Part shown: positions 49,791-57,712 of the stretch, piece by piece | Layout of the letters: each line of letters begins with the position of its first letter | How positions within the stretch are numbered: the first letter of the stretch is position 1 | NCBI GenBank assembly: GCA_038142325.1 | Contig: JAYQJW010000002.1 | Coordinates: 811,328 to 875,327, forward strand | Source: Gammaproteobacteria bacterium | GTDB taxonomy: Bacteria > Pseudomonadota > Gammaproteobacteria > GCA-002705445 > GCA-002716945 | Direction of reading: 5' to 3' | DNA length: 64,000 nt | Position numbers and translations under genes: made by a program | Notes under the pieces: generated by a model | What the model saw: the letters and a program-made list of their open reading frames with translations, nothing else | Databases searched by the model: none | What the model was told of the DNA's origin: nothing

Positions 49791-49961
49791 TGTAACTGAC
49801 CTCTCTTTTGTTATTAATTTCTACATGTTCTTAATTATAAGATACCACAAAACACCCTACTTTTGTAAGTAAGGTCTGTATATATATGATTTAGATGAAA
49901 AATCTTAATAAGTAATAACTAACTAATTATTACTAATACAGAAGATGTGTTTTTAATTTTA

Positions 49962-50330
49962 CTAAAATTTCCATTTGGTCTTGATTTCAATCTTATGCGA
50001 ATTTTTGGCATTGTGATTCTCTAGCCCTTCCCACTTTCCTTTCCAAGAAAATGCATCGGTAATTTTTTTACTGAATCCAAACTCATATGATTTTCCTGCA
50101 ACTCCATCAAAGATATCTTTTCCATGGCTAACAGATTCTGCTGCACCAATTTCGCCATATAGCTTTAAGCCACCTTCTGTTTTCCAAGAATGACCAAATC
50201 TTATATGATTGATAGTACTGCTGTAATCTGTATCTTTCATTTTAAATTCATGCTTAGTCATTAAATATGGTCCTGCAAAGACAGAATTTGAAATTAAGAA
50301 AACTAGCAATAAAGTAAATATATTTTTCAT
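49962..50330 (-). CDS. Small basic outer-membrane beta-strand protein, unknown function
   Basis: GGGAG SD; signal peptide ending VFA; alternating amphipathic strands; C-terminal WKF beta-signal. Confidence 0.75.
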   Translation of the reverse strand: MKNIFTLLLVFLISNSVFAGPYLMTKHEFKMKDTDYSSTINHIRFGHSWKTEGGLKLYGEIGAAESVSHGKDIFDGVAGKSYEFGFSKKITDAFSWKGKWEGLENHNAKNSHKIEIKTKWKF

Positions 50331-50414
50331 GTTGACTCCCTTTTTGTCTAAACAGAGATCTCACAAAGATTCTGTTATTTCAATAGCACTAACAATACAA
50401 GTTCATTATTATGA

Positions 50415-50469
50415 TTTTAGTAAAGATAAATGAAATATTTATAGTAGAAATATTTCAGTTTTATGAATT
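50415..50469 (-). promoter_or_regulatory. Putative degenerate Pho-box array upstream of the small OMP gene
   Basis: 11-bp units aaTTCATaaaa / ctGAAATattt / ctACTATaaat / atTTCATttat / ctTTACTaaaa; weak because the background is AT-rich. Confidence 0.4.
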
Positions 50470-50477
50470 TTTACTAA

Positions 50478-51167
50478 TCAAGCTTCAATGTCTAAAGAAT
50501 ATCCTGAAGATCTTATTGTTCTGATTACTTTGCATTCCTCAGTCGTACTCAAAGCTTGGCGTAATCTCCTAATATGTACATCTATAGTTCTGTCTGATAC
50601 ATAGACATTAGTTCCCCAGACTGAATCAAGGATTTGTTGCCTTGTAAAAACTCGACCTGGTTTTTTCATTAGAAATTCTAATATGCTGTATTCTCTAGGA
50701 CCTAATTTCGCCTCTTTATTACAACAATATACTCTGTGAGTATCTGTATTCATCTTTATGTTTTCAAATTCTAGAATACTTTCTTTATTTTTATTTTTAC
50801 TTCTTCTCAATAAAGCATTTATTCTTGCAATCAACTCTTTTGGACTAAATGGTTTTGATAAATAATCATCACATCCAATATTTAGACCTGATACCAAATC
50901 ACCCTCTTCACCTTTTGCGGTAAGCATTATAATAGGAGTTTCTGATAAACTTTCATGACTTCTAATAAATTTACAAATCTCTGTACCAGGTTGATCGGGA
51001 AGCATCCAATCTAATAATATTAAATCTGGTTTAACTTTTTGTATATCAATCATCCCCTGATAAGCTGTGCTCGCATGATAGAAATCATACCCAGAAGACT
51101 TAATATTATATTCAAGAAGAGATACTAAAGATTCTTCATCCTCCACAGAGAAGATTTTAGCTGTCAT
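50478..51167 (-). CDS. phoB: Phosphate regulon response regulator
   Basis: LLDWMLP receiver, RTIDVHIRRLR winged helix; follows phoU. Confidence 0.93.
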   Translation of the reverse strand: MTAKIFSVEDEESLVSLLEYNIKSSGYDFYHASTAYQGMIDIQKVKPDLILLDWMLPDQPGTEICKFIRSHESLSETPIIMLTAKGEEGDLVSGLNIGCDDYLSKPFSPKELIARINALLRRSKNKNKESILEFENIKMNTDTHRVYCCNKEAKLGPREYSILEFLMKKPGRVFTRQQILDSVWGTNVYVSDRTIDVHIRRLRQALSTTEECKVIRTIRSSGYSLDIEA

Positions 51168-51889
51168 TTATTACTACCTTCTAAACTCTTTTCGATAGAC
51201 TGACTCGGTTTGTTTGTAGTTGAGATATCATCGCCAGTTACGATGAAATGTATTTCCTCAGCTATATTACAAATATGATCTCCTGCTCTCTCGAGAGTTT
51301 TTATAGCAAATAGTAATTTAGTGTAAGTGAGTAATTTCAATTTTGAAACTTTGTCTTTTATCTGATCAACAATGATATCGTAAACAAGATTATACTTTTC
51401 ATCAATTATCAGATCATTCTTTCTAACAAGCTCTGCTTTTTTTGTATCTTTAGAAATATATGCATCGATAACATCCTTCATTTGTGTTTGAACAAGTGTG
51501 ACTAACCTAAGAATATCATTTTTAATATTTGTATCAGGGACAGTTTCTAAGGCCGCAACCCTCATGGCTATATTTTTTGCATAGTCACCCAACCTCTCTA
51601 AATCAGTCGATATTCTCAACGCTGTCAAGGTTGCTCTCAGGTCTATCGCAATTGGAGCTCTCAATGTAATTATTGTAATAACCGCGTCACGAATCTCAGC
51701 ATCATATTGATCCAATCTAGGTTCATTCTCTAAAATATCTTCAATTGTTGCAGGTGATGCAGTATCAATTACATGATATAGAAGTTTAAATTGCTCCTCT
51801 ACAAGAGTAGCCATCTGGGTGGTCAATTGATTAATATTTTCTATATCATCATCAAAAGACTTTACTATATGTTCTTTGTACTCACTCAT
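51164..51889 (-). CDS. phoU: Phosphate signalling protein PhoU
   Basis: EHIVKSFD, P.A.DLR, DLERLGDYAKNIA, LER.GDH..NIAE. Confidence 0.94.
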   Translation of the reverse strand: MSEYKEHIVKSFDDDIENINQLTTQMATLVEEQFKLLYHVIDTASPATIEDILENEPRLDQYDAEIRDAVITIITLRAPIAIDLRATLTALRISTDLERLGDYAKNIAMRVAALETVPDTNIKNDILRLVTLVQTQMKDVIDAYISKDTKKAELVRKNDLIIDEKYNLVYDIIVDQIKDKVSKLKLLTYTKLLFAIKTLERAGDHICNIAEEIHFIVTGDDISTTNKPSQSIEKSLEGSNK

Positions 51890-51926: not shown

Positions 51927-52691
51927 CTATCCAATCCTTCCTGTGATATAATCCTGAGTTTTTTGATGCTGTGGATTCGAGAAAATATTCTTAGTAAAAC
52001 CAGATTCAACAAGCTCACCCATATGCATATATGCAGTTCTATCTGAAACTCTAGCCGCTTGTTGCATAGAATGTGTGACAATCACAATAGTATATTTTGT
52101 TTTTAGTTCCTCAATTAATTCTTCGATCTTAGCAGTTGCAATCGGATCCAAAGCAGAGCACGGCTCATCCATCAAAATTATTTCTGGGCCAACAGCAAGT
52201 GCTCGTGCAATACATAATCTTTGTTGCTGTCCTCCAGATAGTCCGGTTCCCGGTTCAAATAATCTATTTTTAACTTCCTCATATAAGCCAGCTCGTGATA
52301 ATGATTTTATAACTATCGAATCAAGTTCATCTTTAGACTGAGCAATTCCATGTAGTTTCGGCCCATAAGCAACATTATCGTAAATCGATTTAGGAAAAGG
52401 GTTAGGTTTTTGAAACACCATTCCTACTTTTGACCTAAGCAGAACAGGATCTTGATTAGAATCATTAATGTCTGTTCCATCAATCATAATTTGACCATTA
52501 ATAGAGCATATATCTATTAAGTCATTCATTCTATTGAGACATTTAAGTAGTGTTGACTTTCCGCATCCAGAAGGACCAATTAATGAGGTGACCTCTCGCT
52601 CCATTATATTAAGATTAATATCATACAAAGCTTGCTTGTTAGCATAAAACACATTTAAGTTTTTGATTGATATTTTTAGTTTTTCGGTCAT
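51927..52691 (-). CDS. pstB: Phosphate ABC transporter ATPase
   Basis: [33 protein letters not shown]. Confidence 0.96.
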
Positions 52692-52695
52692 TTAT

Positions 52696-53914
52696 CTACC
52701 ACTTCTTCTCAAGTTTATTTCTCAAGTATATTGCTAATAAATTTAAAAGCACTAGAAAAATAAGTAATACCATAATTGCAGCAGATGTTCGTTCAACAAA
52801 TGCCCGCTCTGGACTATCTGCCCATAAAAAAATTTGTACTGGAAGTGCAGTTGATGGATCGAGAGGTGTCCCTGGCACATCAACAACAAAAGCAACCATA
52901 CCTATCATTAATAAAGGTGCAGTCTCACCTAACGCTCTTGCTATTCCAATAATTGTTCCAGTCATTATTCCAGGCATTGCTAAAGGTAATGTAAAATTAA
53001 GTAATGTTTGAATTTTACTTGCACCCAAACCTATGGAGGCCTCCTCTATAGACGGAGGGACTGATTTAATTGCAGATCGTGCCGCTATTACAATTGTTGG
53101 AAGAGTCATAACAGCTAAAGTAAGTCCGCCAACCAGTGGCGCAGACCTTGGAAGAGAGAAGAAATTTAAAAATATTGCTAAACCAAGAAGTCCAAAGACT
53201 ATTGATGGCACGGCAGCTAAATTATTAATGTTGGTTTCGATGGTGTTAGAAAATTTATTTTTCAATGCAATCTTTTCCATGTATAGAGCTGATAGAACAC
53301 CTAGCGGGAAAGATACTATAAATGCAATTAATATTGCATACAAACGAACCTATAATAGCTCCCTTAATTCCTGCCAATTCAGGCTCTCTGCTATCTGCAG
53401 AATAGAGCAAATATTGATTTGCTTTTAGTTTAATTAGGTTTTGTTCTACTAGAATATCAACGTATTGCATTCTAGAGGGATTTATTCTTCCTGCTTCGTT
53501 GCCTTGCCTCTCAACAGTGCCTTTGATATACATGTCAATATCAGCATGTGCTAAAAACCAATGATAACCATTGATATCTTCCTTATTAGAATTTTCTAGC
53601 AGTTCTTCAAACTCATATATAGCGCCTTTACTGAAAAGTGACATCAAGTTCCTTTTCTCGCTCCTTGTTTTAGCCTGTGGAAACATATTATAAACTTGTC
53701 TTTTAAATTCTTTTCTTGAATTAATATCACTTCGTTCAGTTTGAGCAGGTAAATTAATATTAACCCCTATGTAACTTGCTTTGAAAGCTGAAATACCAGT
53801 TGAGAATATATTAAATAGTAAAACAAAGAGAAAAGTGATTGCAACTAAAACAGCAAGGAATCCATAAACTTTAAATCTTCTCTCCGCTTGATTTCTCTGA
53901 GATAGATTATTCAT
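52696..53914 (-). CDS. pstA: Phosphate ABC permease PstA with long N-terminal extension (one frameshift)
   Basis: AERRFK.YG, DSREPELAG, NLAAVPSIVFGLLGL, ARALGETAPL. Confidence 0.93.
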
Positions 53915-55274
53915 ATAATTCCCTATATTTTTTTACCATATTTAATGCAATAACATTTAAAATTAATGTTAGAAAAAACAATACAAATGCCAAAGCAAAA
54001 GCTGAGAGAGTTTTAGCACTATCAAATTCCTGATCACCTGTAAGTAAACCCACAATTTGAACAGTAACAGTAGTCACGCTCTCGAATGGATTCAACGTTA
54101 AATTCGCAGCAAATCCTGCTGCCATTACTACTATCATTGTCTCTCCGATAGCTCTTGAGAATGCCAAGAGAAAACTGGCAACAATGCCATGAAAAGATGC
54201 TGGGATTATAACTTGCTTTGTAGTTTCAGAAACAGTTGCTCCCATTGCTAATGAGCCTTCCTTTAATGAACTAGGTACTGCATTCATAGCATCATCTGTA
54301 AGTGATGTTATAAATGGTATAATCATAATTCCCATTACAGTTCCAGCTATGATTGCGCTCTCACCGCTCAGAGCGCCTGGAGCTATTTTATCTCCTAAGT
54401 CTCTAAAGAAAGGTGCTACGGTAATTACAGCAAAAAATCCATAGACAACCGTTGGTATACCAGCCAATATTTCAATAACAGGTTTTGCAAAAGTTCTTAC
54501 TTTATAAGGGGCATATTGTGATAAATAAATTGCTGAATATAAACCTATTGGTACTGCAACAAGCATAGCTATAAGAGATATCAAAATTGTTCCAACAAAT
54601 ACAGGTATGGCACCAAAACTACCTGATGATGCAACTTGGTCTGCACGAATAGCTGTTTGCGGGCTCCATTGTAATCCGAATAGAAAGTCAAAAATATTTA
54701 TCATTGAAAAGAATCTTAAAGTCTCAAAAAGTAGTGACAGTACAATACCTACTGTCACAACTATCGCCATAATGGATGATAATTTCATAAGCATGACAAA
54801 TAATCGCTCAACATATTCTCTTGCCTTAAATTCAACTGTGACTTTTTTCATTGATAATCTTAGTAAAGTTACAGACAACCCGATTGCGACTATAATCTTC
54901 AAGATACTGTTTGTATATGTTAGAGATGAATATCTTTCAACTGCAGGTAAAAAACCACTATGCTCAATGACTCTTGTCGATACACCGCTTGAGTAGTCTA
55001 TGACTGAATTGATATAAAATTTAACTAATCCGGGATCATTTATATCACCAAAGTAATCCTTAATTGTTAGATTAGTTAGAATATTTTGAATACTCGTCCA
55101 TAGAATCAGCAATGTTATAGCTGGTAAGAACATAACAACAGCTGAATATATTCCATGGTAGTAGGGTTGAGAGTGAAGACTGTTAAACTTGGCTAATGAA
55201 ACTGCTCTACTTTTATTGATTATAAAGCTATAGATGGCAAGTGCAAGAATCGCGAGATATGTAATCGTAGTCAT
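53907..55274 (-). CDS. pstC: Phosphate ABC permease PstC with N-terminal extension
   Basis: LHSQP.Y.G, WSPQTAIRADQ, LAGIPTVVYG, SRAIGETMIV; start ATG 55274 (or TTG 55280). Confidence 0.94.
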   Translation of the reverse strand: MTTITYLAILALAIYSFIINKSRAVSLAKFNSLHSQPYYHGIYSAVVMFLPAITLLILWTSIQNILTNLTIKDYFGDINDPGLVKFYINSVIDYSSGVSTRVIEHSGFLPAVERYSSLTYTNSILKIIVAIGLSVTLLRLSMKKVTVEFKAREYVERLFVMLMKLSSIMAIVVTVGIVLSLLFETLRFFSMINIFDFLFGLQWSPQTAIRADQVASSGSFGAIPVFVGTILISLIAMLVAVPIGLYSAIYLSQYAPYKVRTFAKPVIEILAGIPTVVYGFFAVITVAPFFRDLGDKIAPGALSGESAIIAGTVMGIMIIPFITSLTDDAMNAVPSSLKEGSLAMGATVSETTKQVIIPASFHGIVASFLLAFSRAIGETMIVVMAAGFAANLTLNPFESVTTVTVQIVGLLTGDQEFDSAKTLSAFALAFVLFFLTLILNVIALNMVKKYRELYE

Positions 55275-55282
55275 GTACAAAG

Positions 55283-55357: not shown

Positions 55358-56396
55358 CTAGAACCTCATATTAGCCAATGATTTTGCATCATTTTCATAC
55401 CTTAATAGTTCATCTTTAGGAAGTGGGATAAGGCCTTTATCAATTAGATATCCATCTTCACCAATTGCATCTTCACTTACAAAATGTGTAAGAAACTCTT
55501 CAATGCCAGGTATAGAGCCTATATGAGCTTTTTTAACATAAAAATATAAAGATCTTGATATTTCATAATCTCCGATAGCTATGGCATCGAATGTAGGGTA
55601 TACACCATTAATTTTTGTACCTTTTACCTGATCGCTATTTTGATCAAGAAAACTGAATCCAAATATTCCAAAAGAATTTTTGTTAGAATTAAGTTTTTGT
55701 ATTATCAGATTGTCATTTTCGCCCGCCTCGATATATTTTCCATCTTCTCTAATAGTTCTACAGAGCTTTTTCCATTCATTTTTATTTTTCTTTTTAAGGT
55801 CTTTTATCCAAGAAATCGAATTACATCCATCTGTCATAGCAATTTCAACAAATGCATCTCGTGTTCCTGATGTAGGTGGGGGACCATAAACCATTATCGG
55901 AAGTTCTGGAAGTTCAGAGTTAACATCACTCCATAATTTAGATTGATTCTCGCAAGTAACATCATCTTGAGCACCACATGGCACTTCCTTAGCTAAAGCA
56001 AGATAAATATCTTTTGTAGTCAGTTCTAAATCTATACCATTTTTTAGAATTTGCGAATACAATTCCATCAAATCCAATCTTAATTTCAATAATATCTTTT
56101 ACACCATTAGATTTACATAGAGAAATCTCTTTCAATTTAATACGTCTAGACGCATTCGTAATATCTGGAGTATTAGGTCCTAATCCTGAACAAAATAATT
56201 TTAGACCGCCATCAGAGCCAGTTGACTCAACAATAGGTGACTTAAAAGATGTATTTTTTCTTCCAAACTCCTCAGCAACAGTTGTCGAAAAAGGATAAAC
56301 GGTTGAAGATCCCACTATAGATATACTTTCTCTTGCACTAAGGTCAAATATAAAAATAAAGGTAAAAATTATTGTCAAAATAGTATTTCTAATCAT
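55358..56396 (-). CDS. pstS: Phosphate-binding protein (one frameshift near 56045)
   Basis: Signal peptide, VGSSTVYPF, ESTGS.GG, NASR, GPPPTSGTRDAF. Confidence 0.93.
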
Positions 56397-56446
56397 GTCT
56401 ACTCCAGTTTGATACATTTTTTTCATCTTAGTATTAAAACTCTAGA

Positions 56447-56490
56447 AAATTAAACTCGAATTAAGGATTTATTAAAGATTTGTTAACGAT
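56447..56490 (-). promoter_or_regulatory. Putative Pho-box array upstream of pstS
   Basis: TTAA cores at 56450, 56461, 56472 and 56483 (exact 11-bp period): cgTTAAcaaat ctTTAAtaaat ccTTAAttcga gtTTAAttttc on the minus strand. Confidence 0.6.
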
Positions 56491-56491
56491 A

Positions 56492-57712
56492 CTATTTTTC
56501 GATATAGAGAGGCAAGAAGACCTTAAATATACTTCCTGTATTCTCCTCACTTTCAATGACTAATCTTCCTGCATGACGATTAACAATATGTTTAACAATT
56601 GAAAGTCCTAGGCCAGAACTAGATTTTTTAAATTGAGCTGCATTCTTTGATCTATAAAATCTCTCTGTGACTTTCAAAATATCTTGTTTTGGAATACCAC
56701 ACCCCTGGTCTTCTACTGTAAAACAAATCTCTGAAGACCCTGCTTCAAAATCAATATTTATTGTCGTTGACTCTTGGCTATAGGTTAATGCATTTGAAAT
56801 TAGATTTTCAAATATTTCTATAATCTGATCATCATTGCCACGAATAAATAATTCATTTTGGCTATAAGAACTAGATAATTTTATTTGAATATTTTTTTTA
56901 TCTGCAGTTTGTTTTGCCGCATCTATAGCTGATGATGCGCAGCGGTAAATATCTACTTTTTCATTAGGTATCTGATACTCAGTCTCTTCTACTCTTATAA
57001 GTGCTAATGTATCGTTAACAAGCCTTTGCATTCTCTCAGCCTCAGTTTTTATAATACTAAGGAATTTGCTTTTTTGTTTTTCATCATTTTTAGCTGGTCC
57101 ATCAATAGTTTCAATAAAACCCATTATGGCAGTTAGAGGTGTTTTTAGCTCATGTGTAACATTAGATATGAAATCTGATTTTATTTTTTCAGAAACTTTC
57201 TGGATTGTCTCATCTGTTAATATAATGAGTACGAATTTTTCTTTTTCGATTTTGATAGGAAATAATTGTGCTTGTACATATCGATGAACTTGATCATAAA
57301 TAATTAAATTTACATCAAGTTTAAGATTCTTCTCGAATGCTTTGTTCAATCCTTCGTTGAGCTCATTTGATCTCATTGCTAAGGACAAATGTATATTATT
57401 AGAATCTTTACCTACAAACGAGTTAAATGCTACATTGGACTTTTCAATAATAAAATTCTTATTAACTATAAACATAGGAAAGGTATTTTGATTGAATATA
57501 CTCTTATCATATTCAGAAAAGAATATTGCTTTATTTTTTTGTTTTTCCTTTTCAACTCTGACTGAGGGCTCATTAATAAGCCTGTCCTCTCTGGATAAAA
57601 ATCTATATATAACAAAGTAAGAGAAGACTACAAAAAAAATTACTACTATGGGTGAATTAACTATATAAAGTATAAAAACAGTTGCAATGGAAATAAGTGA
57701 TAACAGTATCAT
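56492..57712 (-). CDS. phoR: Sensor histidine kinase PhoR
   Basis: N-terminal TMs, PAS-like region, DFISNVTHELKTPLT, NLISNA, DQGCGI, ERFYR, GLGLSIVKH. Confidence 0.9.
   Translation of the reverse strand: MILLSLISIATVFILYIVNSPIVVIFFVVFSYFVIYRFLSREDRLINEPSVRVEKEKQKNKAIFFSEYDKSIFNQNTFPMFIVNKNFIIEKSNVAFNSFVGKDSNNIHLSLAMRSNELNEGLNKAFEKNLKLDVNLIIYDQVHRYVQAQLFPIKIEKEKFVLIILTDETIQKVSEKIKSDFISNVTHELKTPLTAIMGFIETIDGPAKNDEKQKSKFLSIIKTEAERMQRLVNDTLALIRVEETEYQIPNEKVDIYRCASSAIDAAKQTADKKNIQIKLSSSYSQNELFIRGNDDQIIEIFENLISNALTYSQESTTINIDFEAGSSEICFTVEDQGCGIPKQDILKVTERFYRSKNAAQFKKSSSGLGLSIVKHIVNRHAGRLVIESEENTGSIFKVFLPLYIEK

Follow-up and report, generated by a model that had tools for sequence, protein, structure and literature searches.

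The window analyzed here is a stretch of 64,000 nucleotides (nt) of contig JAYQJW010000002.1, which belongs to an uncultured marine gammaproteobacterium with a genome of 1.1 Mb and about 32% G+C. It carries a phosphate (Pho) block in the order phoR-pstSCAB-phoU-phoB, closed by a small open reading frame (ORF) that encodes a putative outer-membrane protein of the PF24653 family (Table 1). The ORF has the same orientation as phoB and is separated from it by a spacer of 147 nt, and mgtE and a ribonucleotide reductase gene lie downstream. The original prediction, made from the letters of this DNA, had placed the ORF co-oriented and directly after phoB, which is where it lies, and had suggested a phosphate pore built from several six-stranded chains. 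The reading developed below is that the protein is a half-barrel, probably under the control of PhoB, that may pair with a second copy into a 12-stranded conduit for phosphate or a small anionic phosphorus compound.

Table 1. The ORF at the end of the Pho block and its surroundings. Positions count from the first nucleotide of the window.
Feature	Position	Strand	Basis or remark
PF24653-family ORF, 122 amino acids (122 codons)	49962..50330	-	profile match to Phage_OMP / DUF680 / PhCOG173
Putative signal peptide, residues 1-19	50274..50330	-	model helix 2-14 and family alignment; presumed cleavage after VFA
Residues 20-33: strand 1, predicted to pair with strand 6 of the partner chain	50232..50273	-	interface of two-copy model
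Residues 109-122: strand 6 with the C-terminal aromatic signal, predicted to pair with strand 1 of the partner chain	49965..50006	-	interface of two-copy model
Pho-box-like heptamer array, 11-bp phased, in the phoB-ORF spacer	~50408..50458	-	matrix from pstS-upstream heptamers
Putative ribosome-binding site GGGAG, 5 nt 5' of the ATG of the ORF	50336..50340	-	sequence reading
Terminator-like hairpin closing the Pho block, ~87 nt past the ORF stop	49854..49875	-	hairpin scan; mean of 0.2 terminator-like sites in shuffled sequence
phoB	50478..51167	-	best match TIGR02154, 288 bits, slightly below the cut-off of 296
phoU	51164..51889	-	
pstB	51927..52691	-	
pstA, two overlapping ORFs	52696..53914	-	1-nt insertion relative to nearest relative
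pstC	53907..55280	-	
pstS, two overlapping ORFs	55358..56426	-	one extra A in an A-run relative to nearest relative
Four 11-bp-phased heptamers 5' of pstS, reference Pho-box array	56449..56488	-	
phoR	56492..57712	-	

The ORF protein matches the Pfam profile PF24653 at 72 bits, well above the curated cut-off of 27 (expect value, E, 6.5e-20), and the match is end to end, with residues 6-122 on profile positions 7-122 of 122. The family carries the full name 'Cyanophage outer membrane protein like beta barrel domain' and is the same as Phage_OMP, DUF680, PhCOG173 and IPR056410. Its traits are present here: a length of about 100-130 amino acids (aa), a signal peptide (judged by eye and from a helix in the model), six strands, and a C-terminal aromatic residue. 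PHROG 417 (phrog_417), a group of unknown function, was matched at E 2.3e-18. Pfam held nothing besides PF24653 at E ≤0.1, and a search of NCBIfam returned no family for the protein. The close homologues form 22 clusters, 19 of them 121-122 aa long, and 47 representatives at the 50% identity level were found at E ≤0.001 (51-198 aa). Truncation of the gene by misassembly, a risk named with the original prediction, was rejected because length is conserved among these homologues.

Outside the host, the family is best represented in cyanophages, to which all 66 records matched in the phage collection belong. The cyanophage homologues (30 records listed), P-SSM2 gene 247 among those matched, align over their full length at 36-42% identity and are annotated as DUF680 domain-containing or hypothetical proteins; one record bears the label 'oligogalacturonate-specific porin family protein'. 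P-SSM2 also carries a second DUF680 copy, gene 246 (locus L030, 2377-2766), just upstream of gene 247, which is very divergent and acidic and has a very long branch in the tree described below. Among genomes of the bacterial family to which the host belongs, 17 of 37 (the host included) have a match at E ≤0.001, and 8 exceed the Pfam cut-off. An even sample across the class yielded no match at E ≤1e-5 in any of 400 other genomes.

The host genome encodes three paralogues of the PF24653 type, including the ORF. The paralogue at G000:C2:314877-315257 (L002:1480-1860) is six-stranded and adjoins an HMA-domain protein, a TonB-receptor plug and a 201-aa protein with an aromatic last residue. The TonB-receptor gene close to one paralogue is split, the plug being separate from the barrel. 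The paralogue at G000:C2:746061-746429 (L045) is also six-stranded and lies 10 nt past a gene for a periplasmic glucose/sorbosone dehydrogenase; this dehydrogenase-adjacent type is the most widespread in the bacterial family. In a maximum-likelihood tree with 32 rows, 17 rows for paralogues of the bacterial family stand apart from the other 15 (100/100 split), the latter consisting of 4 Pho-block rows, 4 rows from other gammaproteobacterial metagenome-assembled genomes and 7 cyanophage rows. The Pho-block gene groups with the cyanophage sequences, apart from the paralogues of its own genome. Since the tree is unrooted, we do not read a direction of gene transfer from it.

The chain opens with a hydrophobic helix (residues 1-19) whose final VFA stands just ahead of GPY, from which (by eye and from the helix in the model) we infer a Sec signal peptide. 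The mature chain of 103 residues contains 16 Lys, 6 His and 1 Arg and has an isoelectric point (pI) of 9.2. It had been described as rich in all three of these residues, which is borne out for Lys and His but not for Arg. An AlphaFold2 model of the monomer, built from a family alignment of 31 sequences, has a mean predicted local distance difference test (pLDDT) score of 86.7 and a predicted template modelling (pTM) score of 0.70. A helix at the N-terminus is followed by six strands (residues 17-32, 35-50, 56-68, 77-89, 94-105 and 111-120), and every one of the six strands first parsed by eye lies within one of these. Residues alternate along the strands between a hydrophobic/aromatic face (mean hydropathy +0.51, 11 aromatic residues) and a polar face (mean hydropathy -1.76, with 13 K/R vs. 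5 D/E at 38 positions). Of the 31 aligned family members, 28 end in F, and all 31 have Y, W or F two positions before the last residue, in agreement with the suggestion that the chain ends in an aromatic signal of the type recognized by the barrel-assembly machinery (BAM).

Comparison of the monomer model with 48,161 solved chains gave outer-membrane barrels or designed transmembrane beta-barrels for all of the top 14 matches. The best was the 12-stranded BrkA domain (Z 9.3, root mean square deviation, rmsd, 2.8 Å over 99 residues), and a designed 10-stranded barrel (2.6 Å) and PgaA (3.3 Å) also fit well. Overall, the monomer fits parts of 10- to 16-stranded outer-membrane barrels at an rmsd of 2.6-3.9 Å, but the 8-stranded barrels OmpW, NspA, OprF and PagL fit it poorly (5.1-5.6 Å). 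Because the fit is better to parts of larger barrels than to 8-stranded ones, the chain looks like an open, curved half-barrel, and with six long strands the model is neither a soluble protein nor an 8-stranded monomer. Foldseek with the same model found no solved structure at E ≤0.001, the best being OmpX with a template modelling (TM) score of 0.63, and when the sequence by itself was searched against solved structures, no match fell below E 0.63. The family profile aligns weakly and locally with OmpK35 and PhoE, at their first strands (E 0.0034-0.044, 52-63 residues), which is not evidence of homology. A reading of the protein as an enzyme like PagL, OMPLA or LpxR was dropped, since there is no conserved Ser-His-acid set; the sole conserved His (H112) points to the lipid side, and 8 of the 31 members have W in its place.

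The pairing of two copies was predicted with residues 20-122 entered twice together with their own family alignment, in three runs and with three controls. The interaction prediction score from aligned errors (ipSAE) was 0.59, 0.64 and 0.63 in the three runs, of which we take 0.63, vs. 0.00 in all three controls. The partner had a pLDDT of 81-82, and contacts agreed fully among the runs. In the calibration of this score, the mark is reached by 20 of 30 proteins whose solved structure is a pair of one chain and by 1 of 23 whose solved structure is a single chain; these counts apply only approximately, because an alignment of its own was supplied for the present protein. The predicted interface comprises residues 20-33 and 109-122 of both copies, antiparallel, with contacts of 115 with 27, 119 with 24 and 120 with 22. 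Since the interface residues lie at both ends of both copies, strand 1 would pair with strand 6 at both seams, giving a 12-stranded ring. A homo-oligomer of 2x6 strands was the example offered in the original prediction, and its support is so far entirely computational, from the score of 0.63 vs. 0.00 and from the naturally fused relatives described next. On these predictions, a dimeric 12-stranded outer-membrane barrel is likely.

Five clusters of relatives, 186-211 aa long, consist of one signal peptide followed by two tandem units. The clusters share 50-83% identity with one another and have 51, 104, 34, 14 and 4 member sequences. The fused forms support a two-unit barrel, and their existence is independent of any model. 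The AlphaFold2 model of one of them (pLDDT 84.5) is a closed barrel of 12 strands. Its best Foldseek match is KdgM (E 9.5e-8), and a second structural aligner, which laid the entire mature part over 12-stranded barrels, gave a Z of 15.6 for KdgM (rmsd 3.1 Å, 159 of the 171 residues of KdgM), 17.0 for AIDA-I, 13.9 for NanC, and 16-17 for autotransporter barrels. The KdgM family is absent among the Pfam matches of the ORF protein up to E 10 and among those listed for seven members, four of them fused, up to E 1. Relatives with three or more units were not found among the 8000 candidates scored (224-2000 aa), which is weak evidence, and the viral contig collection yielded no fused form.

The connection of the family to phosphate genes, on which the original prediction depended, is strong and comes from three settings. 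The first is the genus of the host, where all seven orthologues (87-100% identity) are found at the end of the Pho block, between it and mgtE. The gene directly follows phoB in 4 of the 7 genomes. The other 3 have an intervening arsC-like gene and a gene for a Porin_4 protein of 385 aa, along with ppk and ppx in one of them. The second setting is that of the cyanophages. The homologue lies directly 5' of pstS in all six cyanomyophage records inspected (S-8S55, P-SSM2, S-SSM5, P-RSM1, S-SSM4 and P-SSM3), which were chosen from the best matches and not at random. In the accessible part of a 2010 comparison of 16 cyanophages, DUF680 is present in 15 and pstS in 9; thus, the pairing is not universal. 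The third setting is that of the fused forms, which were found on eight metagenome contigs (L046-L053) with 44-51% G+C. A divergent phoB lies upstream in all 6 loci with enough flank (TIGR02154, 305-308 bits vs. a cut-off of 296), a PHO4/PiT-family transporter lies downstream in 7 of 8, after an unknown ORF, and phoR is present in all 3 loci that reach far enough (TIGR02966, 356 bits vs. a cut-off of 334).

These loci vary in other ways. What lies between phoB and the small gene varies in the relatives (L027 on G001:C6, 5163-9812; L028, 8330-10008; L029, 4622-6300), and the arsC-like gene at this place has a low-molecular-weight phosphatase fold. The same relatives also differ from the window in having a gene for a MIP-family channel between pstS and pstC. 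The ORF between the fused gene and the PiT-type transporter in L046-L053 is conserved, is 131-176 aa long, and has no Pfam match. Compared with its closest relative, which shares 96.7% identity across 3.7 kb, the window has one additional A in an A-run of pstS and one additional G in pstA; the split reading of the two genes could be an assembly error or a genuine decay of the Pst transporter.

The 11-bp repeats noticed earlier upstream of the ORF are genuine, as heptamers at an 11-bp phase occupy the spacer. The arrays 5' of pstS in the relatives start with CTGTCAT or CTGTAAC, which we take to be close to the Pho-box half-site of E. coli. With a matrix trained solely on 10 pstS-upstream heptamers, the best two-unit score in the spacer of the ORF is 9.23 bits, a score reached at 246 of 2.19 million genome positions, or 0.015 expected per 147-nt spacer on one strand. 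The fused genes also have 11-bp-phased, TCAT-type heptamers upstream. The 20-nt core of the array occurs once in the genome, even with 2 mismatches allowed, and the array is therefore not a dispersed repeat. Judged on sequence, the phased array is suggestive of a Pho-box promoter for the ORF. The stretch upstream of the ORF is homologous to the region 5' of the Porin_4 gene in the relatives that have one; thus, a single promoter region may serve both the Porin_4 gene and the small gene in those relatives. In these same relatives, the spacer between the porin and the small gene (L027, 4916-5162; the same in L028 and L029) contains a G+C-rich hairpin after an array-like stretch, and the hairpin may terminate or attenuate transcription of the porin.

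RNA contigs from four seawater libraries, each of a different study, cover the ORF at 90-99% identity. One contig of 395 nt spans 49952-50345, and contigs in two runs bridge the spacer between phoB and the ORF. Some bins of the stretch are left uncovered by the RNA contigs.

Published work on the family concerns the phage homologues, and the statements taken from it here reflect the accessible parts of the sources. In P-SSM2, pstS and the adjacent g247 are the sole phage genes up-regulated under phosphate limitation, and a porin-like homo-oligomer was suggested for the g247 product (bioRxiv 10.1101/2021.07.20.453049, citing Lin et al. 2016 for the expression data). A role of the gene in phosphate limitation has also been suggested elsewhere (PMC6224464), and a DUF680 gene and pstS are among the cyanophage genes over-represented at BATS (PMC3686209, table). 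A 2026 preprint describes the IPR056410/DUF680 barrel as incomplete, reports that two subunits form 'a flattened 12-stranded' barrel in AlphaFold-Multimer, and lists phosphate-acquisition modules as well as virion-assembly loci among the contexts of the family (bioRxiv 10.64898/2026.10.24.761521). The accessible part of PMC10976474 does not mention PF24653. In the literature covered, which includes few subscription journals, no account was found of a bacterial copy within a pst operon or of the fused forms. The idea of a barrel or homo-oligomer has therefore already been proposed for the phage homologues. What is new here is the cellular member of that family, together with the natural fused forms and the three-fold linkage to phosphate genes. 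Taken together, gene order, the heptamer arrays and the findings on phages make Pho control of the ORF probable, and it is the part of the reading in which we have most confidence.

The proposed explanation is as follows. The gene, at the end of the phoR-pstSCAB-phoU-phoB block, would be transcribed from a PhoB-dependent promoter when PhoB is active, and its product exported by Sec. The barrel-assembly machinery would recognize the C-terminal aromatic signal and insert the protein as a homodimer. A single chain, with six antiparallel transmembrane strands, would be unable to close a barrel of normal geometry. Two seams of strand 1 with strand 6 would close a 12-stranded barrel with very short loops, similar in size to KdgM and NanC, whose inner face would be charged and net-basic. 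Such a barrel would be a cheap route over the outer membrane, bringing phosphate or small anionic phosphorus compounds to periplasmic PstS during scarcity. The steps of export, assembly and dimerization draw on sequence features and predictions, and the steps that involve PhoB and phosphate draw on synteny, motif arrays and the phage data. We infer the location in the membrane, an open pore, a preference for anions or phosphate, and control by PhoB. As a whole, a PhoB-controlled half-barrel that pairs into a 12-stranded outer-membrane conduit for phosphate or a small anionic phosphorus compound is given a probability of roughly 0.55. The passage of phosphate or other anions, taken by itself, is a close call that we place slightly on the doubtful side.

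Several observations weigh against this explanation. On the regulatory side, the Pho-box score is modest and comes from a matrix of 10 heptamers only, and a scan for sigma-70 promoters found 7, no better than the 5.5 expected from shuffles. The RNA contigs carry no information on level, strand or dependence on phosphorus, and carry-over of DNA is possible. This assembly has frameshifts in pstS and pstA. The dimer score is the model's own confidence, and the two-copy state alone was run. The in/out assignment of the strand faces comes from sequence alternation and not from model coordinates. The conserved residues of the inner face are acid/base pairs (E28, E60, E83, E101 and E115 with K26, R44, K99 and K113), which may be a structural salt-bridge network and not an anion path. 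A net-positive inner face is found throughout the family (+2 to +8 in 31 of 32 rows), including paralogues away from pst genes (up to +7). The dimer barrel of the 2026 preprint, being 'flattened', may lack an open pore. No pst gene was found near the distant single-unit homologues (40-48% identity; 4 loci), nor within 1.5 kb on each side of the paralogues of the bacterial family (16 loci with a match). Finally, phages evolved on one Synechococcus host accumulated disruptive mutations in the gene (PMC6224464), and a homologue was detected in a phage virion proteome (PMC9146016).

Many of these points bear on the most serious alternative, in which the protein is a Pho-controlled dimeric barrel but not a phosphate channel. 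It would then be either a pore for small solutes in general or a protein of structural or surface function produced under phosphorus scarcity, with the paralogues serving other periplasmic systems in a similar manner. The basic inner face is common to the paralogues, the two others in the host genome adjoin a glucose/sorbosone dehydrogenase in one case and an HMA-domain protein and a TonB-receptor plug in the other, the barrel of the preprint is flattened, and the conserved acid/base pairs resemble the interior of small barrels that are not channels. However, three separate settings tie the family to phosphate genes (pstS; the pst block; PiT, phoB and phoR), and in P-SSM2 it is g247 and pstS alone that respond to phosphate limitation. 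We regard this alternative as unlikely, though it is the one to be taken most seriously.

A different assembly is less likely still, whether of more than two copies (3x6 = 18 or 4x6 = 24 strands) or as a heteromer with a paralogue. With an even strand count per chain, antiparallel seams of strand 1 with strand 6 would form at any copy number, the modelling covered the two-copy state only, and the three paralogues of the genome would offer partners for a heteromer. The natural fusions argue for two: they hold exactly two units, with none longer among the 8000 candidates (weak evidence, as said), and the fused model closes at 12 strands. The curvature of the monomer is likewise suited to barrels of 10 to 16 strands.

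That the protein is an accessory partner of a 16-stranded porin, modulating the 385-aa Porin_4 protein or assembling with it, is improbable. The Porin_4 gene does directly precede the small gene in the same orientation in 3 of the 7 orthologue-bearing genomes, with an upstream stretch homologous to that of the ORF in the window, but the host genome and three others keep the small gene and lack this porin there. The sole match in the host genome is partial, at 28% identity, and lies elsewhere; the phage and fused-form loci have no such porin, and the self-pairing prediction passes. Least probable of all is a gene of phage origin for phage-host interaction (as a membrane-inserting module carried on the virion, or with a role as receptor or in superinfection) that by chance came to a variable Pho-adjacent spot: the family is otherwise mostly cyanophage and rare in cells (none of the 400 other genomes sampled across the class), the gene groups with phage sequences and not with the paralogues of its genome, and published accounts report a homologue in a virion proteome and virion-assembly loci among the contexts, but no phage genes flank the ORF, its position is conserved in all seven genomes of the genus at 87-100% identity, it has a Pho-box-like array of its own, and the fused bacterial forms are Pho-linked too.

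The passage of phosphate over the outer membrane is poorly known in the most abundant microbes of the oligotrophic ocean. If a chain of 103 residues does dimerize into a channel, it would be a very cheap entry for phosphate, and it would break the textbook rule of at least eight strands per chain of an outer-membrane barrel. The bacterial copy and the fused forms provide material with which to test an idea raised so far only for phage proteins: an intact cellular gene with a Pho-box-like promoter, a natural single-chain version with 12 strands that is suited to structure work, and three independent phosphate contexts. The outcome would also bear on how cyanophages benefit from a gene carried beside pstS. 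We advance a broader view tentatively, with the odds somewhat against it: members of PF24653 could be the first outer-membrane barrels made of two identical six-stranded chains and the smallest BAM substrates, forming a minimal phosphorus-starvation channel common to, and exchanged by, streamlined marine bacteria and cyanophages. The split (6-strand) and fused (12-strand) genes, each linked to phosphate regulons, would then be a fission/fusion series for the origin of KdgM-like 12-stranded barrels by duplication of a half-barrel.

Among known systems, PhoE and OprP are similar to the proposed barrel in their Pho-regulon context and in the proposed role. They are trimeric, with 16 strands and 330-440 aa per chain, whereas the mature protein here has 103 residues and six strands and matches no Pfam porin. 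TolC and the trimeric autotransporters form one barrel from 3x4 strands contributed by identical chains. The proposed dimer would share with them the use of several identical chains, each too small to close alone, but it would consist of two chains of six strands, with no passenger or periplasmic domain, and no sequence relationship to either was seen. KdgM and NanC are anion-selective channels. The model of the fused relative is a 12-stranded barrel of similar size, and short loops and a charged lumen are features of both; the present protein reaches this form only as a predicted dimer, since it has six strands per chain and two chains would be needed, 12 strands per chain being found in the fused relatives only. 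The closest relatives are cyanophage DUF680 proteins such as gp247, which belong to the same profile family and have the same length, signal peptide, six strands, C-terminal aromatic residue and linkage to phosphate. The phage copy precedes a lone pstS, whereas the ORF is a cellular gene that follows phoB and closes a full phoR-pstSCAB-phoU-phoB block, and its product is more basic (pI 9.2) than the six pstS-adjacent phage proteins (pI 5.1-8.1).

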